Below, in pieces: positions 5,565-33,854 of a stretch of DNA of 64,000 nt. A program made the translations under genes and the position numbers. The stretch covers positions 29,078,001 to 29,142,000 of the forward strand of contig CM060732.1 in assembly GCA_030704615.1 (NCBI GenBank), in the 5' to 3' direction. The notes below the pieces were generated by a model. The model was not told where the DNA came from, made no database searches, and saw nothing but the letters and a program-made list of their open reading frames with translations. Position 1 is the stretch's first letter, and each line of letters starts with the position of its first letter. This DNA is from Takakia lepidozioides (Eukaryota > Plantae > Bryophyta).

Positions 5565-5651
5565 TGTCGTGCGCATACGTATCGCTACATAACTACATCG
5601 CTGTCCAAACCACACCACACATATATGCACAATAAAGTAGTCTGCCACAAT
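5565..5651 (-). repeat. Element 1 repeat A, outer copy (87 bp)
   Basis: Matches 6009-6095 with 2 substitutions. Confidence 0.95.
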
Positions 5652-5652
5652 A

Positions 5653-6006
5653 GATAAGAAAAGCTAAAAGACACACTCTTAATACAAGAAACATGAAATC
5701 CATCTCGTCATCACTCTTTCAAATAGAAGTCGAGCCAGGGGCACCCCAAGCTATGGGGACTCCACCCCACAACAACCTACACTCCCATCATAAGCACACT
5801 CAGTCCTGAACGATGAAGGAGCTCGGTCGCGCAGGCTCAACTCGAGAGAGATGAGCTGTGCGACTGCCGCTCTCGTGAAGATAAGGCGGTTCAGGTGTCA
5901 AACTAAACTTGACACCTGATTTAACACTTGACATAAATCCAAGTGTTAAATACAAATAACTAGCTTTATTCTAGTTGTTTTCACACTGTGCTTATTTAAC
6001 TTGACA
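5653..6006 (-). repeat. Element 1 repeat B, 3' copy (354 bp)
   Basis: Matches 23925-24278 with 4 substitutions by eye. Confidence 0.95.
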
Positions 6007-6008
6007 GC

Positions 6009-6095
6009 TGTTGTGCGCATACGTATCGCTACATAACTACATCGCTGTCCAAACCACACCACACATATATGCACAATAAAGTAGTTTGCCACAAT
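6009..6095 (-). repeat. Element 1 repeat A, inner copy
   Basis: Direct repeat of 5565-5651, separated from B by the dinucleotide GC. Confidence 0.95.
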
Positions 6096-6106
6096 CGCCC
6101 CCCTAG
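6096..6106 (-). other. Polypurine tract of element 1
   Basis: Minus strand reads CTAGGGGGGCG-AT-TGTGGCA, i.e. a G-rich tract, 2 nt, then TG. Confidence 0.7.
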
Positions 6107-6353
6107 CTGGTGGATAGGTCCCTCTACCTCCAGATAGCTACAAGATGTAATAGCCACAGCCGTACTAAGTCCTCTATCACTGTCCCTGTTGTACTCAAAC
6201 TCTATAGACTAAGTGGCCGGGTACAAGAGTAGCCCCATCGTTAGTCGCCGTCTTGCAATCTATGAACTTGAGTCAAGACCTCGTGTGTTCAAGGTCCCCT
6301 AGTAGCTTGGCCTTGCGTTTCTTGTTAGCCCTCCATGGTTGTATCCACTCCCA

Positions 6354-7576
6354 CTATCCAATGCAATGTGGACATAACCAATCCCCATCCGGAACCATCT
6401 CAAGAGGTGGAGTCAAGCAGCCCATATGCCAACCTCTAGAGCATCGATCACACACCAGCATGGTGACTACCCCTCTAGCAGACCCACGCAACATACACCT
6501 CAAACCTGCAAATACCACTGCCAGGTTTGGGTCAATTCTGCCATCGACATTCGGAAGGTGACATGGCGCACAATTACGCACATGGTCCTTCCAAGTTATG
6601 CCATCCCGACCCTCCAAGACCCTGAGGGCAAGACCTCTCGAACCCTCAAAATAACACGTCATGCAGTCACATCCAAGGTCGTAGGAGCAGTCTGCTGCAG
6701 GTAAACATAGTCACTAGGGTTGAATCTCCGAACCCCAGGACGATAGCCCCCACCACGTATGGTAGCATACCTCAACGTATCACGGTGTTGTGCGATGACA
6801 AGGTTTTCGAAAGCCATGGGCATGACTTACTTGAACAACTCTGCACGCTGCTCACATGCACGTGCCCACACGTCCGGATCGTCAAGGTTAAGAACTGCAG
6901 CACCTTCTCTGCGAATGGATGCAGGCAAATCCGACTCTCGGCCAAAGAGAAGAAAGTATGGTGAGAAGGAGGCAAGTGATGCTTGCTTGCTGAACCTGTA
7001 GCCCATGGCTAACCAGGGTAACTGAAGGTCCCAATCTCCTAGGTGTCCCTTCTGCAAGCCATACTTGCGCAAACCCCTCTTTACTGTCTGAACAACTCTC
7101 TCTGCCAAGCCATCGGCCTCATGATGATCCCGAGAAGTGGTGCGGTGGTCTATTAAGGCCTTGTCACACAAAGCCTGAAACTCCCCCAAGAACTCTTTCC
7201 CTTGGTCCGTGAGTACCTCAGCTGGAGCACCGAATCGGCTAAGCACACAATCCAAGAATGCATACGCAGCTCCCTCACTAGCCTTATCAGGCAATGGAAC
7301 CAACTCAATCCACTTGGAGAAGTGCTCCACCATCACCAACACGTACTTGTTGTGACGCATGGTCAGTGGCAATGGCCCTGCGAAGTCAAGACTCCACCTG
7401 TAGCCCAATCCCATGATCGAAAGAGGGTGCAATTGTGGAGTAGGGGCGTTGAATGAAGCACGCACCCTGTCACACACCATGCACCTAGCCACAAATTGTT
7501 GCACCTCTGTGTGCATACCACGCCACCAATACTGCCCTTGCAGTAGACTATGAGTGCGTCGCACCCCAAAATGCCC
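6354..7576 (-). pseudogene. Element 1 DDE integrase core and C-terminal PHD finger
   Basis: CMVC, WSLDFAG, VEHFSKW, LTDQGKEF and DGLAERVVQTVK motifs. Then MLVCDRCSRGWHMGCLTPPLEMVPDGDWLCPHC. Stops lie between core and PHD. Confidence 0.92.
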
Positions 7577-8033
7577 CCCGGGGGGTGCACTCTTTAAAAA
7601 CTGTGCGTATCACGTGCGTTCGTCGCCTAATAAAAAAACCCCCTGTATACGGGTCCTTGGATAATTTATACCCCCTCTGTACATACTTTTTTGAAGATTA
7701 TAAAATCCCCTCCTGTAAATATACAAAAATTTACAATTTTCGAAAAGTACCCCCTTCTGTATGTATATTCTCATTTTTCATCATTAAAAATAACCCTCCA
7801 ATATGTATATGTATGTTTTTATATTATATCGAATTTATTCTTTTAAAACATAATAAAATCTAAAAAATTAATTAAAAAATTTATTTGCCTTTGATAAAGT
7901 TGTCAAAGACTTTTCGGTCATTTGCATCAAGAACATATGTGTTTGACTTGACATTGTACTTTAAACATGCTAACGCGATAATGGAATCCAAATCAACCAT
8001 CATGTTATCCGTCAAATCGTACGTATAGACCCC

Positions 8034-9044
8034 TCATTTCACATGCTCTGTCAAAGAAGATTGCAAAGAACCTGTCCTTGGAAACAAGAGTAGCCACTTC
8101 AAATCCAGTGGGCACCTAATCCTTATGGAACCCAACTGCGAATAGTCTCCAATTGTGGCTTCCACAATCTCAAATCTGTTTCCAGGATTGTCCTCACAAA
8201 ACCGAGCGACTTCCTCTAATGCCTCCTTCACCCTGTTCTTCTTTGCGTCTAATGCTTCATCTGCATTTACAGGGCTGATGACACATTGTGATGAACCCTT
8301 CCCATGACGCCTCTCATAGGCTATGCGATGCCCCTCACTCCTCAAATGAGATCTCATAAAGTTTGCACATGCATCATATGGTTTGTTTTTCCCAGACCGT
8401 GCATAAACATCCTCACACTCAACACACCATATGTGGAACATTGCTTGTCCTTGTTGATCCTTTGTCATCAGCTCAAACTTGTCACATCGTCCTTCTGCAG
8501 AGATTTTCCTTTCAACGGCTCTAATCTCTTTCTGCCATTTTTGAATATCGTTGGATGTAGCCAACGTGCTGCACAATCTACCAGATCTCTGCTGAAGTGC
8601 ATGCTCATGTGCATGGTCTTCATTTCCACCATCGCCAACAAAGGGTGTATCAGGGTCCATCCTCATCTTGGTAGACACTGGTGCCGGGTCCTCGCCTGGT
8701 CTGTCCTCATGCAAGATCGTAGAACCACTGGAAGATAGAGGTCTTTTCAATCCTTGGTCCCCATCATTTTGGTCTGAAATCTTAATGTGTACAGTATCCC
8801 CTTTCAGAACCATCCTCTCTTCTTGCTTGGCTGAAAGGACACTACCCCCCATGGAAAGGAAATGAAATTTTGCTGAGACAAGCTCATCACCTATAATTTC
8901 TGCTCGGATGCATTTGTATGTGACACCTTGCATAGTGAACACAGAACCAAGCCTGTTTGGTGATGCATCTCCTCCAACAAGCAGGACTTTTACTTCCAAC
9001 TCTTCTTCCATGATGAGTTCACCTGCAAAATGCAATGAAAACAT
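8034..9044 (-). CDS. Uncharacterised 336 aa ORF or exon with a C2H2-like motif, cargo of the TIR element
   Basis: Long open frame containing IWCVEC...FMRSHLRSEGH. A TTTGCAG acceptor near 9023 suggests upstream exons. Confidence 0.55.
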   Translation of the reverse strand: MFSLHFAGELIMEEELEVKVLLVGGDASPNRLGSVFTMQGVTYKCIRAEIIGDELVSAKFHFLSMGGSVLSAKQEERMVLKGDTVHIKISDQNDGDQGLKRPLSSSGSTILHEDRPGEDPAPVSTKMRMDPDTPFVGDGGNEDHAHEHALQQRSGRLCSTLATSNDIQKWQKEIRAVERKISAEGRCDKFELMTKDQQGQAMFHIWCVECEDVYARSGKNKPYDACANFMRSHLRSEGHRIAYERRHGKGSSQCVISPVNADEALDAKKNRVKEALEEVARFCEDNPGNRFEIVEATIGDYSQLGSIRIRCPLDLKWLLLFPRTGSLQSSLTEHVK

Positions 9045-10094
9045 TTCAAATCAGACCTTGATAGACCAATAACAAAGCACCCGGGTTGGAAGGTTCCAAA
9101 GTCCTGTTTTATACAACCCTATAGGCTGTCTAAGTAGGAACTACGTTCATAAGAGGATGAAATGTATACAGAAGCAAGTACCTGATTGATGAGTTTGATG
9201 TTGTTAATTTTTGCTGCTGCTATTGACCAAATGCTGCTACTTCCACTGCTGGTAGCCCTCTTGGGTGATCTTGAACCCACAGTCCATCCTTGCATCAGCG
9301 GCTAGCCCTCCCTCCACACTAACATATTTAAATACAAAGTTCTGTCAAACTCCCTACGATGTTGCATGAAGAAAGCTCACCTTGTTGACAATATTGTCCC
9401 ACCGCTATGGATCAAATTTATAGAACTTCTGCCAGTGCTGTTCCTTGCTCCAAATCTGGCCCTCTTGGATGATTTTGCACCCACGATCCTCTCCCTGCAT
9501 CAACAGCTACCCCTCCCTCCACACTAACAATGCGTACATCATGCCTCTGCAGCTACTACTGTGGCTTCCAGTTGACCATCTACCCATCCAGGTTTCTTGT
9601 AGCTCTCATTCCACATGGAATCATAGGTAATCTGGAGCTTGGAATCCGCCATCTGGAAATCTAGGGACGACTCTGATAATAGGGAAAAACAGGCTGAAAT
9701 GTGTTGAAGAAGGTACCTTCATTAGCAGTCCCTTGTTCTATCTATTATCTTTTTTTAGGTACTGTCATGCTACCACCTCGGCAGCAACTTGCAAAGTCAC
9801 TCCAGAGCACCGCAGATCCACCCAACGAGCTAACTTACATAATTCAATACATATGCTTCAGGGCTGAGTCTGATGAGAGGGAAAAACAGGCTGAAACAGG
9901 TCAAACCAGAAGGTGCCCTCAGGCTGAAATACGTTGAAGAATGTACCTTTCATCAGCAGTGCCTTGCTTTATCAATTGCCCTGTTGCCGCTGCTGTTTCC
10001 AGTTGACCATCCACCCACATTGTCCCACCATTGACTGGGGTCAGAAAAGTGTCTCATTCCAAATCTTCTCTTCATCTCTGTGGTGCTATTGTAG

Positions 10095-10720
10095 GGTGAC
10101 TTCAATGCCCAAGTGGGCAAAGGGCTCCATCAGGACGATATCATTGGGTCTTCTGGTGAGGACGAGCTGAATTCTAATGGCAGACGGTTAATTAACTGTT
10201 TGGAAGAGCTTCAGCTTTTGACCTTGATTAACAAGACAAGAGGTGACCAAGTGCAGTGGACTCGTGAGAAATCCCAAACTGGGGAACGTTCCATTGTGGA
10301 CTATATCATAATGGACAAAAATTTGTTCCCCCAGTGTGCCAATGTGTTGATCGACAGAACTGATATTGGTACCTCTGACCACTTTCTGGACTGAGATCAA
10401 AAGGTGTTTTCCCAAGGCCAGAGTAGAAGAGATTCTCAAGGACCTGGACCTGGATCCGCAAGTCTTGACCCTGCTGGATAAATCAGACTTAGAGGCTGTA
10501 GTGTCCAAAGCCATGTCTATTGCCATGAGATTGTCTGATGAAAATGAAGTTAGGCATAAAACTTCCCTGAACTTGTTTCTAGTCAGTGACATGGGGGAGG
10601 ACATCTTGGATGACCTCAAGGGTCCACCCACTCTCGGCACTAGACTGAAATTTAAACTCAGGGAAGGAAGCCTACCTTTGAACATGAAACAAAAGCAGAG
10701 AGGAAAGGGGGAGTGCACTC
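10095..10720 (+). pseudogene. Second, inverted and internally deleted LINE fragment
   Basis: GDFNAQVGKGLHQDDIIG...SIVDYI...GTSDHFL is an APE C-terminus. It is joined to ILKDLDLDPQVL...GKGEC, which matches 11600-11895 in reverse. Confidence 0.85.
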
Positions 10721-11229
10721 TCCCAAGTGAACCTGCATCATTCAGTTGGCAAGACCGTGTCTGAAAAATTGATCCATTTGAAGACACCACGGTGCAGCTG
10801 AGCACAGCCTGACATGACAACAATTAAACATCATACTGAGACAAGAGAAGCAGTCAAGGACACAGTCATGCATATGGCAGCAAGTGATCACCCTTCAAAC
10901 ATGATTGAAAACATACATGAGGTCAAAGGCAATAAGAAATCAGCGAAGGGTACTGCAGCTAACAGTTGGAGTGTCTTTAAAGACAAAGGGAAGAGAAAGA
11001 AACACTTCACTGGCAATGAGGGGAGGCGGTGGAAACGCCAAGAGGATGGCACAAATGATAGAAATAACAGGGCAGGGCAAAGGATCCTGCAGGAAGAAGA
11101 AATGGTGGAAAGGACGTGCGGCTCATTCCAACAGAAAGGGGAACATTCGTGCAGTTAAGTACAACAACCAATTGCCCTTCAATTATGGCTGGAATTTTCC
11201 AAAAGGCGAGGGATGATAAGGATGAGATT

Positions 11230-13800
11230 GTACTCATAAGACGTTGTTTGCCGTAGCCTTGTGGCCATTGACCCCGCGCCCAGTTTCAGTGGGAACAAAA
11301 GGAACAGGGCTGACGTTGGTAGTAAGACTTACCATCGTATAAGGAATTAATCCGGGTTTTCCAGATATCCTCTAGAAAACCCTTCACACAAGCATCAATC
11401 TGATGTGTGTGATTTGCCCAAAAACTAGGCCTCAGAAGGGCCTGGACTTTTCGCTCAGCCTCGAGACTTTCAAAGTTGGTAAACAGGGGTACAGGCACAA
11501 TTCCCTTGATAGAATTGAAGAGAGCCTCTCTTTGGTGAGAGAACCCGGACAGCGTATCAGAAAATGAATACTGTCTTCAGATTGCCCACACAACGGACAA
11601 TTGCACTCTCCCTTTCCTCTCTGCTTCTGTTTGCTGTTCAAAGGTAGGCTTCCTGCCCTGAGTTTAAATTTCAGTCTAGTGCCGAGAGTGGGTAGACCCT
11701 TGAGGTCATCCAAGATGTCCACCCCCATGTCACTGACTGGAAACAAGTTCAGGGAAGTTCTCTGCCTAACTTCATTTTCATCAGACAATCTCATGGCAAC
11801 AGACATGGCCTCAGACACTACAGCCTCTAAGGCAGATTTATCCAGCAGGGTCAAGACTTGTGGATCCAGGTCCAGGTCCTTGAGAATCTTTTTTACTCTC
11901 TTCTGCCAGGACTTAGCCTGTTTGACAGGGCGGTCCTGTTTCCAAGATATAGAGTCAATCAACTTAGGATATCTGGTGTTGGGCATATGTTGCAGCTGAC
12001 CCCACCATCTGACCTTGAATTCATCTCATCGGGAGCTTAAGGATGGAATGCCAAACTCACCCCGAACAGCCACATTGGCTGTTTTGGAGCATGCTGACAT
12101 ACACTCCTTAAGCACCCCCACTTGAATGGATTCTAGAGACTTAGCCTGGTTGGAGTTATCAACCCATATAGCAGATCCGTACTCCAAGGCAGGTCTAATA
12201 ACGCGACAAAGCATGGTTTTCTTAACCTCAGAGATGACCCCTCTGCAGTGGAAAAATTTAGTGAGCCCCAGAGCTTTGCCCTTGCCAGTTCGAACAACTT
12301 TCCGGATATGTGCATCCCAATTACAATTGGAGGAAAACTCAACGCCCAGGTAAGTGTAGGAAGGGAGGACCGGGATCTCTTGGCTACCCCACTGCCACTT
12401 AAGATCACTTCCTCCCTCTCCTCTGTCGTTGAATGCTACCACTGCACATTGCTGACATTAGCCTCTAGCCCCCAAAGATCAAAGTATCTCTTCGCGCAAT
12501 TAATCAACTCCTGAGTGTGATGCCACGGTAGTTCCCCGGTTCTTCTCTGTCACCCTTCTTGTATAGACTGACAATGACCCCCTGTCGCCAGCGAAAGGGG
12601 ATCATTTCAGTCTTCCAGATAAGGTTAAAGAGGAGAACTAGGGCCTCTATCATGGGATCGCCACCGTGCTTGATAAGCTCGTTGACAATACCATCAGGTC
12701 CACCAGCTTTATATCCATTTAAATGTTCAATTGCTTCCACAATCTCAGAAGAACTAATGGGAGCGTTATAAGCCATTGAAATATACTCCAGTTCATCAGG
12801 GCTGTTTTGAATCATAGGAACAATTTTTCCAACTGTGTCCCTCCATTCAGCAGAAGACCCCTCACTGTTAGACCTAGAAGTTCTGCCAAGGATACTGTAG
12901 TGATTTTCAAAGGTTTTGACAATGTCAACTGATGAAGTCACCACTGCACCTTTAGTAGTCTTCAGCGCTTGTACTTGCTGACCGTTTTTAGGCTTGTACA
13001 AACGTTGAAGGGCCAACCATAATTTCTTGTCATTACCACCATGGTGGTTTGAGTTTATTTCACTGTATAACTTATCCCAGTATAATTTCTTCTGAGACCT
13101 AACAAGCTGATTGATATCTTTCCGGAGCTGATAGTACCTCGCCCACAATTCTCTGTTGGTTTTCAAATTGCAGCACTCTTTATAGAGGGCTCGTCCTCAC
13201 CAAAAGGCCCAATGATATCGTCCTGATGGAGCCCTTTGCCCACCCGGGCATTGAAGTCACCCAATAGCACTACCTGACCTTTGGCAAGGAACGAAGCACA
13301 GTTCAGCTTTACATCTTCGAAGGCTTTGTCTGCGTCAGCACTAAGGGTCCCCTCTGTGGGCATGTAAACACAACCCACAAAGAGGTCCTTCGTACTCATG
13401 CCGCCCTTCAGATTCAGTTTTAGCCAGATACTATGTTCGTACCTCAAACCCTTCTTGATAATTTCACAATTATCAAACAAGAAATCACGGACAAAGAATC
13501 CAACCCCTTTTTGACCGCGTTTGGCAGAGGTTGCCTTGAGAGTACACATCCTACCTGCCCATTTATAACCATTGACATCTCCAACCAGTTTATCCAAAGT
13601 TTCCCATGTTTCTTGCCCAGCACAGATATGAATATCATTAGTCCGAAGGACTTGTCCCACTTCGAGTTGTTTCCTTTGGTTAGTAAGCCCTGAGAAGTTG
13701 AAAGTGGCCAGCCGCAAGCCAGCCCTTTGCATGTGAATTGTTTGTCGTCTAGGTAGCTTGGGATAGCTCCTGGACGCCCAACCCTTCTGCAAAGGGGGGA
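11230..13800 (-). mobile_element. APE-type non-LTR retrotransposon (LINE) ORF2 remnant
   Basis: Endonuclease motifs LATFNFSGL, AGQETW, CVYMP, LLGDFNARVG. RT N-terminus KAGGPDGI...KKGDREEPGNYRGITL, then YTYLGV and a C-terminal CPLC...HFLIRC. The RT core is deleted. Confidence 0.9.
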
Positions 13801-14610
13801 CAGTTACCCCATGTGTAGATTTTGCTCGTCTTGTGTAAACTCTTGAGTACCAAATCCTTCAGATTCAGAACGTTCAGGTTCTGTACACTTAGGGGCATCT
13901 TGTCCCTCTGGCTGTTTGGATTCAATAAGGATGAGAATAGGCCTGATACAGTGAGTACAACCTTGTGTCACGCCAATCATTATTAGGAAAGAAAATAGGC
14001 CTAATGTGCTCATTACCTCTGATGACTGGGAATCTTGATGCCCATGTCCTCCTGTCATTGCTGCACAACAATCCGCCACCACACCCGCATATCATCACCG
14101 ATCAGCCCAGGCCTGCCCCACATTCCCGCGCACTTACTGCATCCCCTTCGATTCCTGCCCTCTACATACATCACAACCTCAAACCTTCTCCCAAGTCAGT
14201 GCCCTCACCACATTGTCCTACCATGCCCTGTGGAGAGGAGGGGAGAGGAGAGGAGGAAAAAGAGAAAGCCCGCGGAAGGGAAGGCGAACGCGGGAGAGGA
14301 GGAGAAAGAAAAGAGAAAGCCGCGGGAGGTCAGGGGAGAAAGATCGTGGAGCGAAAAAAAAAAAAAAAACAAACATACAAAACGACGATTCCACGATTCG
14401 ATTCCGGGATGCATCGCGGCGGAATCGCCATTCTTACCACTACACTATCCCTAAAAACTCAACAACCCCCTCCTGTAAAATTATATTTAAGGTGTTTTAA
14501 ACCCCCCTCTGTATGTATAATGTTGTACATGGGGGGGTTTAAAATACCCCCTCCTGTGCACGCACGTGGTTGGTACATTTAATGAGGAGTGCACCCCCCG
14601 GGAAATGCCC

Positions 14611-16500
14611 CAACTCCTCATGGGCATGCCGCACTAACCGTGCCCGCTGTGTTGGGTGAGGCACAATCCTCACTCGACCATCCTCCCACACTCGGAGCAG
14701 GTGTGTCCCCTCTCACTTGAACCTCTTGGCTCGTTGTAGGATCCGATCCCTCTCCTTGGCAGTTACAGTGTCTCCAGTGCGGAGGTAGTCCAACACAACT
14801 GAATCCTCATGTATATCTTTGGCGCCACCTTGCTCATTGCTGGCCTCAGGGTCCTCAGACACTTGATCTACAGTCATCCCTGTTGCAGGTCCAACCTGGC
14901 CTTCCGCTGCCAAGATACACAGAAATGCAGATGCATGCCATCCGGGCACCATCTCCTCGTCCGTCTCACCATGCCACCGAGCTCCAGTGTCATCCTGCTG
15001 GCTCGTGCATGGATTGCGACTCAACCCATCTGCATTGCGATTGACCAAACCCGGTCGATGCACCACCTGAAAGTCATACACTTGAAGGATGAGTGCCCAC
15101 CGTGCAACCTTCCCCGTAAGCTTGTCTGACTCCATCAACCACTTGAGTGGTTGGTGATCCGTGACAAGGGTGAAGAGATTGCCGTATAGATAGCACATGA
15201 AGTGTGCCACGGCCCACACTGCAGCTAAGCATTCTCCCTCATATGAGCTATACTTAGACTCTGCAGTATTGTTTGCGCGGCTAGCATAAGCCACTACGAA
15301 CTCTCTTCCCTCATCATCCACCTGTGTGAGCACCGCTCCAAGCCCTAGCATGCTCCAATTTGTATGCAGCTGAAAAGGACGCCCCTGATAGGTCGTCTCA
15401 AGATGGGCGCTGAGGTCAACCTCGCCTTGAGCTCTTGAAAAGCTTGTTCTTGCTCATCTTCCCACTGCCACTCCTGGTCCACCTTGGTCAGCTTGGTTAG
15501 AGCCTTTGCAATGGCACTAAATCCCTTAACAAACCGTCTGTAATAGTTTGCTAACCCCATGAAAGCTCGAACTCGGCTCACATCCGTGGGGCGTGGAACC
15601 TGTGCAATGGACTCTACCTTAGTTTGTTGTACCCCCAATCCTCCAGGATATATCATGTGACCCAGATACTCAATCTGGTTGTGGAAAAACTTGCACTTGC
15701 CCGGATGTAACTTCAATCCGTGCGTCCTCAAGCGCTCAAATACCCCCTGAAGGTGTCTCTCATGCTCCTCCACCGTAGCACTAAAGATGATGATGTCATC
15801 TATGTAGCACCGAGCAAACTCCACCCCTGCTAGAATCCTGTCCATGACTCTTTGAAACTCAGCGGGAGCGTTTTTAAGCCCAAATGGTAAGAACCGCCAC
15901 TGGTATAGGCAATCCTTCCCGTGCTCATTGATCCCCCATAATGCCGTCTCTTGCTTATCCGCCTCCTTGATCGGCAACTGGTGATATCCGGATCGTAAAT
16001 CCAACGTGCTAAAGACCGTGGAATGCCCAATGGCATCAAAGATCTCCTCTGGTGTCGGCATGGCATACCTATCGGACTTGGTCTGACGATTTACAGGCCG
16101 GTAATCACCGCACATACGTCTCTCCGTCCAATTGCCATAGACATCCTTCTTGGCTGGCATCACTGTGGCTGAAGCATACTCTCCACTAGAGAGCTCCACC
16201 AAACCTGCCTCCCAGAGATCTTGAGTCCTCATCTGAATCAAAGACCTCTCCATGTCACTGTATCTATAGGGTCTCCGAAAGATTGGTGTGTCAGTGGCCA
16301 ACTCAATACGGATCTCTTGACCCTTCAGTGCTCCCAAGTCCTTCAAACTGAAGGCAAAGCAATTCCTGTAAGCCCTCAGGAACCGCCGTATACGTCGTCT
16401 CTCTCCTCCGGTGACAATGGGTCCAATGTCAGGCTCCCAATTGTCCTCCGTAACTGCAACCTTAAGTCCAGTGGGCTTAGAGATAGAGGACGCGTTCTGT
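14611..16500 (-). pseudogene. Element 1 reverse transcriptase, RNase H and integrase N-terminus
   Basis: [48 protein letters not shown] and NADGLSR. Frameshift near 15380. Confidence 0.95.
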
Positions 16501-16769
16501 GGTTGCTATGCTGCAACCTCTTGAGCAGTACTCCCTTCCTGCTCAGTCAATGACAAGACCTCATCCTGCCCCATCATCTCATCATTGAGAACCTCCTCAT
16601 CCCGAGAAGAATCCCCAACCTCATCCATCACAGCTGCCTTGGCTGCCAACTCCCTCTGAACCTCAAGCACCTCCCACGTGTGCCATGGATGTCTACACCT
16701 CGTGGTCCTCACCGGCTCGCCCCCACTCACTGCCTGTACCGTCTCGGTAGGCAGAGATACCGTCAAGGG

Positions 16770-16922
16770 AAGTGCACTCCGCACTCTACGTTGCTCAGCC
16801 ATAGCCAAGCTGATAATCCAGGTCAAGCAATTGAGATCCATTGCTTGCCCCAACACCTGACGACGTGATGCCTCAGAAAGAGAAGGCACCGCCGTGGTCC
16901 CAGTGGAAAATCCCATAGCCCG
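16770..16922 (-). pseudogene. C-terminal motifs IX-X of the C5 methyltransferase, left outside the inversion
   Basis: RAMGFSTGTTAVPSLSEASRRQVLGQAMDLNCLTWI resembles the DNMT3 C-terminus ERVFGFP..YT.V..MSRLARQRLLGRSW. Confidence 0.8.
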
Positions 16923-17399
16923 TGGAATTGGATCCACAGCGTGGGGAGGCAAGCCGTCAGGCAAGGCTTCCTCAGTCATTCACATTGGCGGAGACTGTGT
17001 TGACGCCATCCATGGCACCTAGTTCTCGCCCGACTGTTACCGAGGCGGAGGTTAATATGCCATTGGGGAGAGCTACACGTGCAGCACTGACACCTGCTAC
17101 CAAGGCTAGTGCGGCCGATGTGTTATTGGGGGCAGCCACCTCTGTGTGTCAAGCCCCACTGTTCTCGGCAACCATGATTGCGACGCCGGGAATAAGACCA
17201 GCTGCAGTGTTCAGACTAGCAACAACACTCTGTGAGAGTGGGGAGGTCACTTCATCTTCTGCGGAGTTAGTGGAAGGTGTAGTGGCAGAGGGATCCTCGG
17301 ATTTGAGGGTCAAGACTGCCACGGCTGTGCCCTGGCAAACTGCAGCTGCCAGATTAACGGGGCTGCCAGCTAGGCCAGCCTTTGAGCGCGCCATGGTGA

Positions 17400-17850
17400 C
17401 ACCTAGAGTTGTCTTGTTAGACAACCATGAGGGCATTTTCTCATTGAGTGGACCGGCAGGCAAGAAGTACCGGCCACTTCGGGTCTTGTTGGACTCGGAA
17501 GCTCAACCACTGATGTTGGGCAGAGCTGCTATCACAGGTTTGGGCCTCATGGAGGCGGATATGGAGCCTTGTCTTTTCCAGATACAGACATCTCTGGGAG
17601 GATCAGAGCACGCTCGGGGCATGACACGGCGTGAATTGGCCATTAGACTGCAGCCGGATCATCCTAGAGATGGCTCAGTGATGCGAGCCAAGGCCATTGT
17701 GACAGATGCGGTCTCTTACGATGTCCTCGTTGGTGGGGCAGTGTTATACCCCATGGGCTTCACCCTGGACTTTTGGGAGGAGTCAGCATCCTACAGGCCT
17801 GGATGACAGTCAGGGGATGGTCGTCGTGCACAGCTCCCTGTGACATTCAT
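17400..17850 (+). pseudogene. Element 1 retropepsin-like aspartic protease (inside the inverted segment)
   Basis: RVLLDSEAQPLMLG (degenerate DSG motif) ... YDVLVGGAVL. Confidence 0.75.
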
Positions 17851-17994
17851 TGGGGGTATTGCGACTACCCAGCGGGGCAAGATGCCAACACTAGAAGCCT
17901 TTACAGCTGCAGTTAGTTGGCCTGGAGAGTTGCTGGAGGGCAATGCCCATGCAGAGGATGTGCCACCTCCAGCAGAGCAGGATGACATGATGGT

Positions 17995-18996
17995 ATGGCG
18001 GAGTTGCCTGCCATGATTGCTCACACTCCATGGTGGGGTACGAGCAAGGATTTGCAGCAGGCTGCTGATGGACGGGTGCAACAAGCTTGGGTAGAAGCTT
18101 TCGTACCGTCGGGAGAGGAGGAGAGTGCGGTGATTGCACAAAGACCACCCCAGTTGTCGCCATTGGACACCACACCTCTTGTGTGGCAGCGCCCGGATGA
18201 AGGCATATGCCTTCTGGACTTGTTTGGCGGGATCAACACTGGATTGGCTGCAGTGCTGCAGGCAGGTGTACGAGTTCGACGTTACCTCTATGTGGAGAGG
18301 GATGAGACTGCACGACGCGTCTCACTGCGCCATGTGGCTCAGTTGGTACAGCAGTACCCTGACTTGTTGCCTGTGTCTGCAGTTCGTGGATACCAACAAG
18401 CCTTGCCAGCAGACATTTCCTTGTTGGGGGCGCAAGATTTGGAGCAGGTTGGCTCCATTGATCTGATAGTGGCAGGTTGGCCCTGCCAAGGGCATTCATC
18501 AGCCGGGCATGGCAATGGATTGCGAGACTCGAGGACGGGTCTGTTTTGGGAGATGGTGCGGGTTTTGCGCCACTTGCAGCTTCATCAAGCTGTATCTCCA
18601 GCATACATCTTGGAGAATGTGCCACTGATGGGTGATTCTCGGGCCAAGGTGATGGCCAGTGTGCATCAAGTCCGGTCATGGCTTGGGTCAGCAGTGTTGC
18701 TGGATGCAGTTGCAGTGGGGTCACGGGCTCATCGTCCACGGCTTTGGTGGACTAACTTGATGTCACCCACACTGCTCAAGCGTGCATTTGATGGGGTGCA
18801 GCGGCCAGCACACCTCACCGTGGATGGCATTTTGGACACAGGGAGGCAGTCTCAACGTGTGAGACACGATGACCGTTCTCCTTTGGCAGTGGTCAACAGG
18901 GTGGGTCAACCACGAGCAGCATTACCTACACTGCTCAGCTTCCCAGGATCCCATGCTTTTCGGGATGGTGGACCTGGCCTCTTGTGGGATAGCTAG
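17995..18996 (+). CDS. DNMT3-like C5 cytosine DNA methyltransferase domain of element 1 (inside the inverted segment)
   Basis: Motif I LDLFGGINTG, II YVERD, IV AGWPCQGHS, VI ILENV and VIII AHRPRLWWTN, all in one open frame. Confidence 0.93.
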   Translation: MAELPAMIAHTPWWGTSKDLQQAADGRVQQAWVEAFVPSGEEESAVIAQRPPQLSPLDTTPLVWQRPDEGICLLDLFGGINTGLAAVLQAGVRVRRYLYVERDETARRVSLRHVAQLVQQYPDLLPVSAVRGYQQALPADISLLGAQDLEQVGSIDLIVAGWPCQGHSSAGHGNGLRDSRTGLFWEMVRVLRHLQLHQAVSPAYILENVPLMGDSRAKVMASVHQVRSWLGSAVLLDAVAVGSRAHRPRLWWTNLMSPTLLKRAFDGVQRPAHLTVDGILDTGRQSQRVRHDDRSPLAVVNRVGQPRAALPTLLSFPGSHAFRDGGPGLLWDS

Positions 18997-19019
18997 TTAC
19001 AACAGTTAGTGGAGCCTAA

Positions 19020-20669
19020 ATGGAGTGGCTCAGGGACTCGTGATGCTCATCAAGTCACGGCTGCAGCAGACTCCACTTGCTGTAGTGGTAGCGCTGCTCC
19101 ACACATGAATCCCATGCCTCCCATATCTCCTCCCTCAGGAGCAGGAGGTGGACCATCCCGCCTGGGAGCTGGTACCGCCTAAGCTATAGCCATGGCAGTG
19201 AGCCTCTGCTTTAGCTGCTGAAGCCGGTTGGCCATGCCTTGGTCAACACCCTAACCTCCGTGTCCTTGGCCATGTTGAGCTTGCCCTTGGCCTACACCTC
19301 GTGCCCGGCCACCTCGTCCTCTCTGAGCTGGTCCACCTCGCCCCCGGCCACCATTGTTCCCTTGGAACTGGCATGGGCGCAACTCAGGGTGCAAGTCATA
19401 ACACTAGGCATCTCCATGCCCATACTTGCCACAATGCCCACACTACAACTGTGCAGGCTATGCTTGTGCCGACCTTCTGCCACTCTCTGGGCAATCTCTC
19501 TTGACATGGGGTCCTCCACATGTCCAACATATCACCCCTGGTTGTTGTTGGCCTGCAAAAGATGCCACGGGCCTCTGCACATGAGGTCCCCTATAAGCTC
19601 CATGGAACTTGGGCTGGGCAACCTTGGCCCCTTGACCACGCTGTTGGGCAGTCCCTTGTGCCTGTGGGCTAGCAGCTGCGCCTCGTGCAGGCATGTCCTT
19701 GCCAAATCCAATGGTAACAACTCGCTCCTCCACCATGTTGAGCTCAATCCGTTCAGCCAGCAGAAACACATCTGCTAATGTGGGTTGGGCTGCCTGTAAC
19801 AGGGTTGCATCTCGCACCCTTCTCTTGAGCTCCTTGTCCAGAATTCCATACCAAAACTGGATTGTCTGAGCTTCAATAACCCCTTGGGTCACACTTATCA
19901 AGCGCCTCATACGAGTGTACGCCTCTCGCAGGCTCTCACTGGGTTTGCGCTGGAAGTCTTGCAAACTTCGCAGCTTCTCAGTCCGTACACCTTGGTAGTT
20001 CCTCCGCAACTCCTGGAAGAACTCCACCACCGGGCTGAATCTAGGCACATGTGTTGTAGTCGTGGGAGGATGAGTAGTAGCACCTTCTGCAGAAGTACTG
20101 GCACTACTTGTTCCACTACTAGTGCTAGCCGTGGGAGGTATTGGTGCTGATGCTGCTACTGGTCGCGTTGTTCTTCGAGTAATGGAGACGTAGTCAGGTG
20201 ACCAATACATCCTCCACTCTTCAATTTCTGCTTCATGCCCTCGCCTGAACTCGTGGTAATCGTCCATAGGCGGGCCTTCCAAATGCTAGAACAATCCTTT
20301 CCACGCCATAAATGGGGTGAACAGCTGTGGATTGCGCATCTGCTGCAAATCACACTAGATGTCGAACTCCTGGATAAAGTCATCCAGCTCGATTGTGCCA
20401 ACAGCTCCAGAATACATGTGAGGTCCCTTGGTAGCTCCATACATCTCCTCCATGTCGTCCCACAACAATGGCGAAGAAAACTGCACACTTGTTGATGAAA
20501 CCTCCGGGTCTGTGTCAGACTCTACAGTAGTTGAGGGTGGCGGTGAAGGTGGTCTGAACCGAATACCTCGTCTTGTGAACCCACTCTCACTGTTACTGCC
20601 TGTAGCCGTACTCCCCTCAAAACCCTTGGGTAACTCCGTGATGACACTCACAATGTGCACCTCCCCCAC
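19020..20669 (-). pseudogene. Element 1 gag
   Basis: FQRKPSESLREAYTRMRRLI...FWYGILDKELK capsid-like region and CWTCGGPHVKRDC zinc knuckle. In-frame stops. Confidence 0.85.
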
Positions 20670-21189
20670 GTGACACTATAAGGCTCTAATACTAATCCTA
20701 ATAGTGACACGGGTGGGCACCTGTTGCAGTTTAAGGGTCATATCTTAATGGCTCAGGGCACCTGCACCTGCATCCACCGCAAGAACTCCTATGGTTGGCT
20801 GGTCATCAACCCAGCCTCACCATAGAAGAAACACTGGTGGTCTTGCTGGTCATCACTCCAGCCTCACCACCGACAACATACTCTAGGATTGACCGGTGAT
20901 CAAATCCGGCCTAATCCCTATGAAAGCAAGCGCCCACACAAAACCAACATGGCGCACAGTCAAGCATGCAGGTGTTGGGGGGGATCCAAACACAAGAAAT
21001 CAAAACATCAACACCCCCACACCAAAATCCAGCTGCAATGTTGATCCTGCAGAATAGCCCAGCCCAAAAACCCGGACTGACTGGCCTCCACCAAGAGAGG
21101 CTTTGGCAACTACAAGTACAAGGTAATGAAAATAGTACAAAGATGGAGGGGAAGAATAGAAGCCCGCCCAAGCAAGATCTAATCCTGAT

Positions 21190-22042
21190 CTATGCTATCA
21201 ACTGCCGGACTTCTCTCAAAGTGCCTCGCTCTGCATGATGGTAAGGTGTAGGAGGTATATCTATGTCCAGAAACCTACCACTAACCTTGTCCCAAGCTAC
21301 AGTAGCTCGCTCTAACCAACCCTCCTCCTCTTTCTGCCATGTAGAGACAAAACAACACTCTGCTATCTCCCGCTCACTGAACACTAAAGAAAACAAAGGT
21401 AGGGTCTGATAGTCTCTCAACTCGAAAGCTTTGAGACGGTTGCGGGTGTCCTCATTGCGAATGAGTGCATCTCCTTCAAAAAGAACAAACTTGTCCTTGC
21501 TAATGAACCCCCGCTCGTGGTTGCCTTGTGCAGAGCGTGTCCGGCTGCAACCGTGTCTGATTGCACAAACTTGTGTAGCTCCTGCTCCTCTGCTCCAGTA
21601 CACCACGGCTTTGTGGCTGAACACCTTGGTCCCCGGGGCTGTCTTTGGCTGTGTTCCAAGCCTAGCTTTCACCCACTTTGGTATTTCACCTACAGCTGCA
21701 GAACTGCTGGCTCCAACAGAGTTCTGACTGTCCAAGGCGATATTGAGGCCCTCAACGCCAACTACAGCAGTCTGTTGTCTACTGCTAATGCCTGACTCCT
21801 AGTATGCAATCAACTCGTCCAACTGTTCTCCACTCAAATCAGTCTGAGTTCCTTGGGAAACATAAATCTTGTCCCTTTGTGTGCACAGGCTAAGAGACGA
21901 GACCTGCCCTTCAATTACGTCCTCATTTCCCCCAGCCATACAAGGAGGACATCCACAGACTTGTCTCTCATACAGACCAGAACAGGTTCTAGAAACAGAA
22001 TTGTGGATCTTTCACGGCATACTCACACTCTAAAAATTCCAT
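21190..22042 (-). pseudogene. Extra ORF upstream of gag in element 1, function unknown
   Basis: The 181 aa ORF 21190-21735 continues upstream in frame past one TAG (LIAY*ESG). The upstream limit is approximate. Confidence 0.5.
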
Positions 22043-22492
22043 AGATTTTTAGCAGAGTCCCAAAAACAAAAACCAGGTCTAGATACGTAGATTTCCCTTT
22101 TCTGCAGCTATCCCCTCAAAAACTGAGTCAAACGGAGCTCATTTGACAAAGATATGACCAACCAGGCTCTCTAAACATAACACATTTTTCTTTTCTTTTC
22201 TTTTTAAAAAAAAAAAGACAAAACAAATACAAAGAAAACTCTTTTTTTAAAAAAAAAAATACTTGTCTTGGTTCTTGTTCCCTGGTTATCTACGGGTTCC
22301 CGAGGCCGTTCCCCTCGCACTGTGAGCACACTACTGCCCCATTTCCGGTGCAGTTTGAGCATAGAATGCTGTCGACTTTACTTGGAGGCGTGGACTGTGA
22401 TGCCTGGACGCACACACGCCCCCGACCTGTTCTACACTGCGGATGACCACCATCACCGCATTTCCGAGCGCACTCCACAGCTGCAGTCTTCC

Positions 22493-22494
<2 letters not shown>

Positions 22495-22542
<48 letters not shown>
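22495..22542 (+). repeat. (GA)24 microsatellite
   Basis: Read directly. Confidence 0.97.
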
Positions 22543-22545
<3 letters not shown>

Positions 22546-23906
22546 ATGGCGAGACTTACAACAACAGCACAGGGCATCATGGCGTCCTTGGCATCAGCGG
22601 CATGGTGTGGGTGCCCTCAGATGTAGCTCACAGTAAAGGCGATCTCGCATGGAGCAACCTCCTCTGCAAATGCTGCTCGGCTGCCCTAATGGATCATGCA
22701 TCACTCCTCTCATCTTCAGGAGAGGCCCCCCTGCCAGTTTTTTTTGGGTTACCGAATCGGCCTGGGAAGATTTTGCATCACTGTTGGTTACTGTCCAAGA
22801 CGTCCGCCACTTCATGCCTCCAGCCTGAGTCCCATACAATGCACAAACTCATGAGTCCGTAACTTCCATGATTGGAACAAAAATACAAGCTGTCGCATAT
22901 GGTTCTCCTGCAGCTAACTAAAAAATCACTTCAAGTTGCCAGCCTTCCTCAGGCTGCGGATAGGCCCTTCGCGTGCGCAAGTGTGGTATGTGGGGGATCA
23001 TTGTTGTGGTTTGGGAAAGGTAAGTGGACCTTTCCATTGCTGAAATCTGTAACCTTGATCTTGTACCAGCCTGTCTGTATGTCTTTTCCATGAAACTTGT
23101 CTCTACCTACGACTCCGGCCACGTGTCCTGTGGCAACAGCGGACTTCACCCGCTTGTCATGAGGATTCAGTAGACATTGTCTCCCCCATCTTGAACCCTG
23201 CAGATGCAGACTATTGGGGGGCAGTCGCTGCCACTTGATGATGCATTGGCCCTCACATATATTGCCACCGTCTTTGCAGGGGTCCCGCCTTCCACATCCT
23301 TTCCTGCCTGCATTCGTGAAGTAGCCCTGACCCAACTCTGAAATCCTCGGAACTCTCTTCTAGCGAACGTGCAAGGAAAGAAGCGTTTTGTGGGGCCTTG
23401 CCCTCCTCCCATGTTGAGGTACATGTTGTTCCATTAGCCTGGTATAGTCCGGAAGGCTCTTATGAAGTATGTGCTTGGACTTCACTGCCATCGTCTACTG
23501 AAAAGCACCAAATGCCGCCTTCGTCCTTAATTACTCGATTTCTCTGTAGGCTTGCGTGAGATTGCAGAGCAATAACTTTGGCATCCACACAGATTCTCCA
23601 GTACAGACCAACTGCTATGCCAGTGCGACTGACAACAGCTGCTTGTATTTGCCGTAGAATCATGTGTCCCTTTGCCATGGCTCATGTGTGAGCTCATGCT
23701 GGACTTACAACAGCCACTCAACTTGAACTTGAAGTTCTTTGCCCTGATTCTGTTCTTTTCCTCATCGTCCTCTCCTTCCCCTTCCTCGTCGACCTCCTTA
23801 GCTTGTCACAAACATAATCCACAAACCACCATAATTTCTTCTCTCACTTTCAAAACAAAAACCACAAGTGCTAAAACTAAACTCACCTCTGGCACTCACA
23901 GATGCA

Positions 23907-23924
23907 AGCTCATCTCTCTCGAGT
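23907..23924 (-). other. Primer-binding site of element 1, complementary to its own terminal repeat
   Basis: AGCTCATCTCTCTCGAGT abuts repeat B and is the exact reverse complement of 24112-24129. There is no TGG tRNA-type PBS. Confidence 0.8.
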
Positions 23925-24278
23925 GATAAGAAAAGCTAAAAGACACACTCTTAACACAAGAAACATGAAATCCATCTTGTCATCACTCTTTCAAATAGAA
24001 GTCGAGCCAGGGGCACCCCAAGCTATGGGGACTCCACCCCACAACAACCTACACTCCCATCATAAGCACACTCAGTCCTGAACGATGAAGGAGCTCGGTC
24101 GCGCAGGCTCAACTCGAGAGAGATGAGCTGTGCGACTGCCGCTCTCGTGAAGATAAGGCGGTTCAGGTGTCAAACTAAACTTGACACCTGATTTAACACT
24201 TGACCTAAATCCAAGTGTTAAATACAAATAACTAGCTTTATTCTAGTTGTTTTCACACTGTGCCTATTTAACTTGACA
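23925..24278 (-). repeat. Element 1 repeat B, 5' copy
   Basis: Matches 5653-6006 and is followed by TCTT. Confidence 0.95.
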
Positions 24279-28777: not shown

Positions 28778-31052
28778 CTACCACTTGCCAGAGCTTTGCG
28801 ACCGTGATCTCGTGGTCAATGAGGGGCCCAATGACATGTGATCAATTCTGGCCTGCATCTGTCTATTTCGCGGCGAAAGTTGACTTTCTTCTTCACTCTT
28901 ACATCGTGGCGGAGGTGGATCGAGAACAAGTGTTCGGACTGCATGCAAATCGGCAACGATGCCGTCCTCATCCGGCAATACAGCCCCCAAAACACGATGA
29001 TAACGGTCTGTCCATAATCGCCTCCATTTCTCTACAACTGCCTTGATGGTACTTTTGAAACTTTCCAACTGCCTCTCACGGGCCCTGTCCCTAATCATTG
29101 TGTCGTTTCGACGATAAGCCGCCTCGTACGCATCATTCATTTGACGTTGACATATTATAACATCTTCCAGTTCGAGACAGCGACAAATGTCTCCCAATCG
29201 GTTGTCGGTCATACAATTCGTTCTCCTCCGGCACCCATGGAACCTGTGGGAGCTGGATAAACCTGGACCTTCTTTGACTCCAATGCCCCTCCCAGATTGC
29301 GGCAAAACTGCTCTCTCTCCCACCAATCTCAAATACCTCCTGCACATATGGTTATCTCCCAATCAGATGTGACCCAGAAATACTGGGGATCTTTGATGTA
29401 TGCCGGGTTTCCGGCATGTATGTCATGCATCTCTCTGTCTGCATCCCATACCAAGTTCTTGCCCCAATGCACACAATTCAGAAATGTGTATGGTAGCCCA
29501 TCCAATAGGAGGTTGTGTCGATTGTATTCAAAACCTATGGGCATCTGATCCTCCAAGCCCACCAGCTCATAGAAACGGCGATGGATTAGTGTACGGCATT
29601 CTGGGCAAGCGCTCGTCCGCAAGGCTTGCGGGATAAGACATGTAAGATGGAACATATGTCCACATGATCCAAGCACATGACATCCCTCTGGGCCGTATGG
29701 ATTCCTACACATCGAACAAACTGTGCCATCTACTATCCATGACGGCAAAACGCCTTGTGGTATCTCCTCCCTCTGGGCCGGTTTGATGTGGTTGGTCATC
29801 CTTGTTGTGGTGTCCCACTCTTCCTCTATCTCCAATTCCCAGTTTATGCTTCTGTTCGACCCCGAAATTCTGTGCTCACATTGATCGAACATAGAATCCA
29901 CATCTGCCCAATTGGTATACCCGGCGAACACGCTTGATGCGATGCGGAGATCGTTATACCTTTGCATGTTGGGTATAAATGCTATCCACGCTACGGTTCG
30001 ACATGCGTGCGACACGTTGCAAGCCTGACTGTGCCCGTTCTACCCGTGCTTCTCTGGAGGCCAAATGGGTCGCCCATTGTACCCAATTCTCCCAATCGCC
30101 ATTCAATGGGACCCATGCCTGAATCTCCAGCGTTTTGGACAAACGTCATGCAGCTGCCATGACAATGTCCTACTCCTTTGTAACGCGATCGACATCTAAT
30201 ATTGGGTTCATCTCCGATTGAATGGCGACCCTCGAGCATTCCCCGATTTCCAGTACTGGTTCTTTTCTTTTCCTCTTTCTCTCATCCGCAATTCGTTGTT
30301 CCTCAACCATGGTTTCATCGGCCACAGGGTCAAGGACTTCCGTAACTTCCTGAATGATGAGGTCAATACTGCGATCGGGCATCACAAACTCCGCGTCCAT
30401 GTCCACGACATTTGTTCGATCCTCATTGTGGACAACAATGCCATCATTGTTTGGAGGCATGTCTTGCAATCTAGCTTCCAACTCGACTATGCGCAGTGTT
30501 TGCCAGTCTAGTTGGTCCTGCAGGGTCCTGATTCGCTGGTCTCTTTCCGCCAGTTGTTCATCTAAAGTTGCAGCCGGTTGTATTCCAAATCGTATAGCCA
30601 CCTTGCGTTCCTCCTACTGGCAGTTTGCCAATTCATTGGACGCAAGAGTATGACCTCCACGTACAACATGGCTGCCAAAGTGTACAGGATTTGACCTTTT
30701 AAGAGAGGATGACCCCACAATGAGCAATGCACCTCATTCGCCCTATGCTGGAAATGCAAGTTCGTGCAAGACTTGGACTCTGCGTAATTGTTTCGGGTTT
30801 GCACGTCATGCCTATCCAAAGGCCACAATCGATAGATGTGATATCATTTCACGAATTTTTTGCATCTTGCCATCGGCCACCAGAACTCTTCCGAAACATC
30901 CTCCCAGCCCTCTTCTGCTAGTATGTTTGGGTCACCAAATACTTCCCAATTCAAGTCTTGCCTTGACCCTTTGATTTTCTTAGGGGCGGTCCATGTTCAT
31001 TGGGGTCATCTCTTCCATGACGGTCATGTCCTGGCCCTCTGTCATTCTACAA
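28778..31052 (-). pseudogene. Coiled-coil plus RING-H2 protein pseudogene
   Basis: A chain of same-strand ORF pieces with an LDEQLAERDQRIRTLQDQL coiled coil and CSMC...SCGHMFHLTC...CPECR. Confidence 0.7.
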
Positions 31053-33798: not shown

Positions 33799-33800
33799 AC

Positions 33801-33812
33801 TTGGTATCAGAG
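33801..33812 (+). other. PBS complementary to initiator tRNA-Met
   Basis: TGGTATCAGAGC, 2 nt after the LTR end. Confidence 0.93.
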
Positions 33813-33854
33813 CTTAGAGTTCAGTGCGCGATCGTCCTTGGGATTGGCCTCATC

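Follow-up and report, generated by a model that had tools for sequence, protein, structure and literature searches.

Two questions are raised by a cytosine methyltransferase that lies among the genes of a retrotransposon: whether the enzyme belongs to the element, and what it would do there. Both were addressed for a stretch of 64,000 nucleotides, hereafter the window, from the bryophyte Takakia lepidozioides (GenBank assembly GCA_030704615.1, contig CM060732.1, positions 29,078,001 to 29,142,000). The window holds an 18.7-kb Ty3/Gypsy element on the minus strand (5565..24278) that starts with TG and stops with CA. An earlier note, made from the letters alone, had described a DNMT3-like DNA methyltransferase (DNMT) in this element, built into Pol between protease and reverse transcriptase (RT). 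Our analysis points to another arrangement: a dead copy of a Ty3/Gypsy family shared among bryophytes, in which the DNMT3-type enzyme ends the Gag-protease frame, a conserved and likely leaky UAG-CARYYA stop leads on to RT, RNase H, integrase and a PHD finger, and the enzyme, made at capsid level, likely methylates the element's cDNA. We give this composite reading somewhat better than an even chance.

Motifs I–VIII of the methyltransferase were placed at 18148..18993 (plus strand) by Pfam, profile, fold and alignment. The plus-strand frame 17986-18993 is free of stops and carries, as the earlier note had stated, motifs I (DLFGG, 18217-18231), II (the acid, 18295), IV (Pro-Cys, 18481-18486), VI (ENV, 18613-18621) and VIII (R-x-R, 18733-18741). 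A search with PF00145 (DNA_methylase), which that note had proposed as a check, returned a match with E=1.9e-13 and 51 bits against a cut-off of 22. The ranking among methyltransferase types was done with an intact Calypogeia homolog, P0004 (71% identical to the window domain), and with a 17-sequence profile, not with the window copy itself. Among solved structures, P0004 placed DNMT3A/B/C on top (E 8e-11), with DRM-type enzymes (4e-7 and weaker), HaeIII, HhaI and DNMT2 behind; the profile gave about 5e-19 for DNMT3A versus 3e-8 for HaeIII and 4e-6 for the first DRM-type entry. In a Foldseek search with a predicted P0004 model, confident over the DNMT and poor elsewhere (mean predicted local distance difference test score 61.7), all 34 rows listed were DNMT3A/B/C entries. 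DRM identity was rejected, as the motifs of the homologs run from I to X and not in the DRM permutation, and DNMT3 entries outrank DRM-type ones. By sequence and predicted fold the methyltransferase is of the DNMT3 type, in line with the earlier note; its activity is a prediction.

The domain proved to be strongly conserved across related elements. Gag, protease and DNMT are colinear in proteins of Marchantia, Calypogeia and Sphagnum, and a host-gene reading of the DNMT was rejected. In an alignment of 209 element-borne domains, the catalytic Cys is found in 206 of the 208 having a letter at that place, the motif VI Glu in 208 of 209, and the two motif VIII arginines in 201/205 and 203/206; Glu, not Pro, precedes the catalytic Cys in 84 of the 209. 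Identity to the Marchantia homolog P0003 is higher for the DNMT (72%) than for gag (60%) or protease (56%). The dN/dS comparison that the earlier note had suggested was made between the window and a relative, L035, and gave dN 0.49 and dS of about 2.3 (one pair, dS near saturation); the DNMT thus appears to be under purifying selection. Judged from sequence, the methyltransferase is an integral and conserved part of the element.

In the window copy the DNMT is broken by an inversion. The minus-strand parts are gag, DNMT motifs IX-X, RT, RNase H, integrase and PHD, and the plus-strand parts are protease and DNMT motifs I-VIII. The inverted block of about 2.1 kb (16923..19020, plus strand) contains the Gag-protease linker, protease, DNMT motifs I-VIII and the target-recognition region, and splits the DNMT from its motifs IX-X (16770..16922, minus strand), which are 74-88% identical to bryophyte homologs and match the DNMT3A C-terminal motif via P0004. 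Mapping of 54 homologs gave the order gag (minus strand, 20648-19380), protease with DNMT I-VIII (plus strand, 16925-19020), IX-X (minus strand, from 16922) and RT (minus strand). About a dozen bases are absent at each junction, some five DNMT residues are gone at the DNMT-side break, and the GC skew changes sign across the block. Two placements given earlier hold in part. A protease-like region does lie just upstream of the DNMT (17417-17803), but stops at 17804 and 18994 and a frameshift near 17989 keep the two from forming one frame. Motifs IX-X can be recognised and point towards RT, but on the strand opposite to motifs I-VIII.

The opposite strand of the block relative to gag and RT, with no read or contig shown to bridge the inverted junctions, could indicate a separate insertion or an assembly chimera. 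We consider this extremely improbable here, and for the family as a whole it is refuted. The block also contains the element's own protease, homologous proteins cross both junctions with a loss of only about five residues at the DNMT side, and neither introns nor a target duplication of the block's own were seen. At the left junction (16922), contigs of all four sequencing runs exit the window and run on into what an un-inverted copy has next to motif IX, so the inversion is confined to this copy or its assembly. The depth over DNMT and RT is also similar. Summed contig depth, which is not copy number and comes from runs retrieved with a stretch spanning both DNMT and RT, was 845,158 over DNMT, 1,044,269 over RT and 219-620 over private insertion sequence in run X1, and 721 versus 1,161 over DNMT and RT in run X5, from a different study; X1 and X4 possibly derive from the same sample as the window. 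These similar depths speak against most copies being without the DNMT, which the earlier note had named, along with introns or a target duplication of the domain's own, as evidence that would count against its claim. Separately, a 70-base piece of the DNMT region (18824-18893) recurs 42 kb off at 61096-61165, 89% alike and on the strand opposite to that of the inverted block.

The junction between DNMT and RT bears on how much enzyme would be made. ORF1 (open reading frame 1) ends on the minus strand in an in-frame UAG followed by CAACCA, which fits CARYYA (16500..16508, TAG at 16508-16506), about 110 codons past motif X and 22 codons ahead of the conserved start of the RT region. Two relatives share this stop together with its motif. 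L035 (1-9285) is a contig that assembled as a circle and sits in a genome catalogued as cyanobacterial, where eukaryotic DNA was most likely misbinned. Its two ORFs, Gag-protease-DNMT and RT-RNase H-integrase-PHD, are both open, lie in the same frame and are parted solely by TAG CAATCA. The decayed locus L001 has TAG CAATCA at the matching place. In-frame TAG-CAA-YCA is thus found in all three loci with DNA over the junction, and the frame and the six post-stop bases are kept while the flanking linkers have diverged. CARYYA follows only 7 of the 4843 stop triplets in the window. Random decay as the source of the stop was rejected, the UAG being conserved in relatives.

This conserved stop overturns the claim that the DNMT is built into an RT-bearing Pol, and with it the expectation of one continuous protease-DNMT-RT frame. 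As the DNMT ends the Gag-protease frame before the stop, Gag-like rather than Pol-like amounts of enzyme are expected. Known proteins largely fit this boundary: of 47 protease-DNMT proteins with nothing downstream, many of them near-duplicates and some maybe clipped at contig ends, 36 end 53-184 residues past motifs IX-X, 10 within 23 and one after 479, and the seven best-scoring RT proteins start past the linker. For the organism-B contig over the stop, 35 differences are listed and none falls at 16500-16508, although the record holds 47 other letters and places near the edge may be uncounted (a difference at 16496 is unlisted). UAG-CARYYA is described as an established readthrough signal of tobacco mosaic virus (TMV) and other plant viruses (PMC4132726, PMC2194720). 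The stop in this family is likely read through as well, which would leave the DNMT at Gag level and RT-integrase as a minority product. No RNA structure common to the window and L035 was evident after the stop in single-sequence folds.

Several observations weigh against this reading of the stop. L001 has nine in-frame stops in the scanned stretch, and the in-frame gag-pol stop of Tca2 is reported not to be read through by its local context (PMC2194720). DNMT is followed by RT in one chain in 22 proteins; six of these are bryophyte gene models without part or all of the stop-bearing linker, and the others, from more distant branches, look like true fusions. Since other branches fuse DNMT and RT stop-free or put the DNMT after RNase H, bulk synthesis is evidently not needed to keep the domain. 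The stop might be the true end of ORF1, with re-initiation, splicing or an internal transcript start providing RT-integrase, and DNMT still made with Gag. Besides the Tca2 precedent, this agrees with the ATGs that gene callers place a few codons past the stop in P0059, P0060 and P0211, and with the bryophyte gene models P0008, P0012, P0015, P0041 and P0054, which join DNMT to RT and skip the stop-bearing stretch. Those models, however, are predictions that each skip a different stretch, the window ORF2 has its first Met only far into RT, and the frame and the six CARYYA bases are kept in all three loci despite the diverged linkers. We regard a true ORF1 end as quite unlikely and retain the leaky stop.

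Relatives of the family were found among bryophytes and green algae. The closest named relatives of the DNMT are proteins of Marchantia polymorpha, Calypogeia fissa and Sphagnum. In a tree of 60 hand-picked homologs, the window, L035 and nine phage enzymes as outgroup, which included no host DNMT3 and carried a long-branch warning at the root, the window domain fell within a 10-row clade with bryophyte proteins (Shimodaira-Hasegawa-like approximate likelihood ratio test, SH-aLRT, 100). The RT tree comprised 154 rows, leaving out matches below 190 or above 300 residues and near-duplicate cluster members, and had no named Chlamyvir/Tcn1 reference. In it the nearest sequences were from Calypogeia and Marchantia, followed by Coleochaete and L035. 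The surrounding clade of PHD- and DNMT-bearing elements (FastTree support 1.00) also held three Klebsormidium and four Closterium proteins and a Scenedesmus pair, and the window's RT separated from the RT of a chromovirus in the same window. Further relatives were found in Closterium, Scenedesmus and Chromochloris for the DNMT and in Coleochaete for the RT.

A search of 50%-identity representatives yielded 190 protein matches with E no higher than 1e-30. The protein searches returned nothing named as a K. nitens DNMT, and the three K. nitens RT proteins in the RT tree are without DNMT. L035 is 68% identical to the window in RT and 51% in DNMT. Metagenome contigs contributed at least three loci, among which L001 is the one relative with an RT; viral contigs contributed 31 loci, none matching the family RT frame and nine serving as outgroup; genome contigs contributed two, the close relative L035 and a distant RT match, L036. 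A second layout, RT-RNase H-DNMT-integrase-PHD, was found in 35 full-architecture proteins, including those of Scenedesmus (P0035-P0046, P0258, P0262 and others). The DNMTs of this layout group as a single clade (24 rows, SH-aLRT 98) that lies among those of the protease-DNMT-RT forms, a nesting which suggests that the domain has shifted its place within the polyprotein.

The ends of the element are permuted and carry a self-priming site, both of which the earlier note had listed together with the PHD finger, and all three are present. The minus-strand order is A, primer site, coding region, polypurine tract, B, GC, A, one base, B. The 5' repeat A (23925..24278) and its 3' counterpart (5653..6006) show five mismatches over 357 aligned bases, and the internal repeat B (6009..6095) is identical to the terminal one (5565..5651) at 85 of 87 bases. 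Directly after the 5' repeat A lies the primer-binding site (23907..23924), an exact 18-base complement of the predicted self-primer at the predicted 5' end of the transcript (24112..24129), and the two are base-paired in the RNA fold; at the corresponding place L035 can form a 13-base duplex whose sequence differs. The polypurine tract (6096..6104) stands ahead of the internal B, and L035 repeats both this arrangement (6939-6946) and the order polypurine tract, B, junction, A. The internal B-GC-A junction (6003..6012) is a near-perfect palindrome, GACA-GC-TGTC, each half of which corresponds to one end of the inserted element, and the junction of L035 (7051-7060) is a perfect GACAGCTGTC palindrome. 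Flank comparison gave a 4-bp target-site duplication, AAGA (24282-24279 and 5564-5561), though the A-rich 3' flank makes this 4-bp match modest evidence by itself. At the terminal A-B join a single extra base (5652, minus strand) lies between the predicted primer-defined and polypurine-defined cDNA ends; it is left out in seven X1 contigs and one X4 contig and in none from X5 or from X7, which may be an RNA run.

Since the primer site follows A and the polypurine tract precedes B, a conventional round of reverse transcription should yield a cDNA carrying B-GC-A on either side. What is inserted would be a circularly permuted version of this predicted cDNA, in which the two cDNA ends are joined at 5652 and the palindrome halves serve as termini. 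That the base at 5652 varies among copies fits a join made anew in each round. Joined-end cDNA is usually treated as a dead end. The integrase of human immunodeficiency virus 1 has been reported to cut a palindromic two-LTR (long terminal repeat) junction internally (PMC1905944), and by analogy the integrase of this family may cut the internal GACA-GC-TGTC palindrome in end-joined cDNA. One point counts against this route: the end model comes from one full copy and one circularly assembled contig that is unable to show ends.

The main rival to circle cutting is a templated route, in which strand transfers at the internal B-A junction rebuild both ends, so that the linear cDNA ends at the palindrome halves and no circle is cut. 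Templated strand transfers have been proposed for split-repeat elements of the DIRS type. The A-coding-B-A-B layout is indeed of that type (PMC5890265), integrases normally use linear ends, and the element has TG...CA ends with a short target duplication. Set against this, the primer site directly after A and the polypurine tract directly before B mark out B-GC-A as a conventional LTR unit, in the window and in L035 alike, and the terminal join consists of exactly these two ends with one additional base, present in some copies and absent from others. We consider the templated route possible, if on balance doubtful, and continue with circle cutting.

Taken together, the proposed cycle would run as follows. 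The majority of ribosomes would halt after the DNMT and a minority would read through. The 5' end of the RNA would prime the element's own reverse transcription, and ordinary strand transfers would produce a cDNA with the terminal repeat B-GC-A. The two cDNA ends would be joined, and the DDE integrase would cut the internal GACA-GC-TGTC and insert there, which would yield A...B-A-B. Methylation of the cDNA by the DNMT would precede or accompany insertion, with the PHD finger perhaps reading the target chromatin. Inversion, frameshifts and nested insertion would be later damage to the window copy. A Gag-fused domain is expected in the particle, which places the DNMT beside the cDNA, and methylation of new cDNA copies is its most likely role. 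It is from sequence alone that we infer enzyme activity, readthrough and circle-cutting integration.

Base composition and one published activity assay weigh against this role. The element has an observed/expected CpG ratio of 0.46-0.57, intermediate between two DNMT-free Gypsy elements of the window (0.88 and 0.27), and so shows no self-methylation signature; nor is it singled out by CpG or CHG depletion in the window. In yeast, no methylation was obtained with the Gypsy Dnmt3 domain of Klebsormidium, an outcome the authors regard as inconclusive, while Symbiodinium DIRS Dnmt3 domains methylated CG there (PMC5890265). The DNMT might instead act mainly on host DNA or chromatin in trans, or serve as a DNA-binding or protective domain, cDNA methylation being incidental. 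If made in bulk with Gag, the enzyme would exceed the needs of a single cDNA, a methylation signature peculiar to the element was not seen, and several possible roles are listed in PMC5890265. The nearly invariant catalytic residues and the expected packaging of a Gag-fused domain adjacent to the cDNA argue the other way, and we judge a trans or protective function unlikely compared with cDNA methylation.

KnitGypsy-Dnmt3 of Klebsormidium nitens (de Mendoza et al. 2018) is the closest described element (PMC5890265). According to that account, it shares with the window element a Ty3/Gypsy RT, RNase H and DDE integrase, an intronless and non-permuted Dnmt3-type domain with key residues kept and under purifying selection, and DIRS-like A-coding-B-A-B repeats. 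In our RT tree, the window RT and the three K. nitens RTs fall in the same large clade. The union of Gypsy, Dnmt3 and DIRS-like split repeats was therefore already on record, and the suggestion that the window represents an undescribed lineage does not stand as to kind. The two nevertheless differ. DNMT, RT and RNase H of KnitGypsy-Dnmt3 are stated to be one ORF in the peer-review file of PMC5890265, whereas the window family has a conserved UAG-CARYYA between them, although readthrough would still yield a fused DNMT-RT product as a minor form. KnitGypsy-Dnmt3 was described as an acquisition in the K. nitens lineage (PMC5890265), and the window's nearest relatives are from liverworts and Sphagnum. 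The main text of PMC5890265 has no mention of PHD, nor was a self-priming or replication model seen there, while the window element has both a PHD finger and a self-priming site. Given its separate DNMT and RT ORFs, the window element is a related variant, not a member, of KnitGypsy-Dnmt3.

Other known systems match single features. SymbioDIRS-Dnmt3 is also a retroelement with Dnmt3 and A-coding-B-A-B repeats, but integrates by a tyrosine recombinase (PMC5890265), where the window element has a DDE integrase and a target duplication. DIRS/Ngaro membership was rejected on the DDE integrase in place of the tyrosine recombinase and the 4-bp target duplication. Tf1/Sushi and plant Tcn1 chromoviruses have a primer site complementary to the element's own 5' sequence (PMC6317226, PMC4600332), and the self-priming arrangement of Tf1 and Tj1 is described in PMC4600332; the Tf1-type hallmark, a primer site that complements the element's own 5' repeat, is seen over 18 bases in the window and over 13, of different sequence, in L035. 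These chromoviruses carry chromodomains (PMC6317226, PMC4600332), whereas the window element ends in a PHD finger and its RT stands apart. Chromovirus membership was rejected, since neither the element's terminal segment in the window nor L035 ORF2 has a chromodomain, both carrying a PHD instead, and since the RT lies apart from that of the window's chromovirus. TMV, SIRE1 and murine leukaemia virus have an in-frame stop between bulk and enzyme frames, as here, and UAG-CARYYA is the TMV context (PMC4132726, PMC2194720); the bulk frame of the window family differs from theirs in ending in a DNA methyltransferase. Gypsy-7a_cRei of Chlamydomonas is a PHD-bearing Gypsy with LTRs divided into subparts, likened here by description only, and has no methyltransferase among its listed domains (bioRxiv 10.1101/2022.06.16.496473).

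Streptophyte Gypsy-DNMT3 elements are mentioned in passing elsewhere (bioRxiv 10.64898/2026.05.21.726589; PMC12344493). In the accessible parts of a plant LTR classification (PMC6317226) PHD occurs zero times, and those of PMC10952607 contain nothing on Gypsy-DNMT3 elements. In the literature searched, with little subscription content, Repbase or theses, neither bryophyte members of this kind nor the readthrough stop nor the end mechanism was described. The family is a bryophyte-associated branch of the Gypsy-DNMT3 lineage, and its new aspects are the readthrough-type stop after the DNMT and the integration-suggestive ends.

A wider extrapolation, offered tentatively and in our view less probable than not being the case, is that of an old green-lineage Gypsy clade which self-primes, makes DNMT3 at capsid stoichiometry through a leaky stop, and has its cDNA circle opened by the DDE integrase at an internal palindrome. 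If so, insertion would ordinarily start from two-LTR circles, each new copy would be methylated on arrival, and in bryophytes with many copies the element would supply de novo methylation that is not host-encoded. The conserved stop, if leaky, shifts the expected dose of the enzyme, making it a bulk particle component and not a Pol passenger, and the end structure suggests, in checkable form, how a DDE integrase could act on a site within joined cDNA. Retrotransposon-borne cytosine methyltransferases have so far been described from algae, in elements that do not lend themselves easily to study; through the relatives in Marchantia polymorpha and Sphagnum, the enzyme's service to the transposon can be put to the test in a model land plant. 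There are consequences for annotation as well. Homologous ORFs with PF00145 matches carry host labels, as hypothetical or methyltransferase genes, and element ORFs annotated in this way can inflate DNMT counts; LTR finders expecting two equal terminal repeats would mis-call the ends of these elements.

The remaining coding parts of the window copy are recognizable through extensive damage. Upstream of gag is a leader ORF of about 250 codons with one stop (21190..21940, minus strand), not assigned to a family; it has no match in Pfam or Atlas and one homolog, P0400 (44% identity over 161 aa), and its sequencing-contig depth is at family level. Also inside the leader, 22500-23800 has very low family depth and is probably another insertion private to this copy. 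The stop-broken gag with its zinc-knuckle region (19026..20648, minus strand) matches PF03732 at E=0.0048, under the Pfam cut-off. The aspartic protease region (17417..17803, plus strand) has no Pfam match when searched alone and was placed by the Marchantia homolog P0003; its active site reads D-S-E, against D-S/T-G in 25 of 26 matched homologs. RT, RNase H and the start of integrase occupy 14603..16505 (minus strand; PF00078 E=6.6e-32, PF17917 E=2.2e-33), with RT proper at 15345-16505 by Pfam and a frameshift near 15381. The integrase zinc finger and DDE core follow at 6620..7568 (minus strand; PF00665 E=2.3e-14, PF17921 E=2.3e-12), and the PHD finger (6357..6620, minus strand; PF00628 E=1e-9, at 6620-6357) closes ORF2 after a frameshift at 6620.

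The integrase is interrupted by a 7-kb nested insertion (7569..14602) with a 9-bp target duplication and short inverted ends, which is probably Mutator-like and foreign to the element family; a contig joint that omits its 7034 bases was found in three of four runs. The insertion holds LINE (long interspersed nuclear element) endonuclease sequence (13166-13858, PF03372) and a 298-base inverted repeat (10420-10717 / 11602-11899). Because of its stops (17804 and 18994), frameshifts (about 17989, about 15381 and 6620), altered protease triad and nested insertion, the window copy is dead.

Adjoining the element's 3' end is an array of a 50-54 base unit with a hairpin-like core (5252-5524), and a second such array, its core again hairpin-like and internal, lies at 31439-33100. 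The chromovirus-type Gypsy of the window (33074-39873, plus strand) has Gag, protease, RT, integrase and chromodomain between two LTRs that are 98% alike. An ORF with a RING-finger-like match under Pfam cut-offs was found at 29332-30039 (minus strand), and an assembly gap of 500 N at 47811-48310. It is followed by a further Ty3/Gypsy element (48311-61093, minus strand) with 655-base terminal repeats, a 1335-aa Gag-Pol frame and 10-base tandem arrays.

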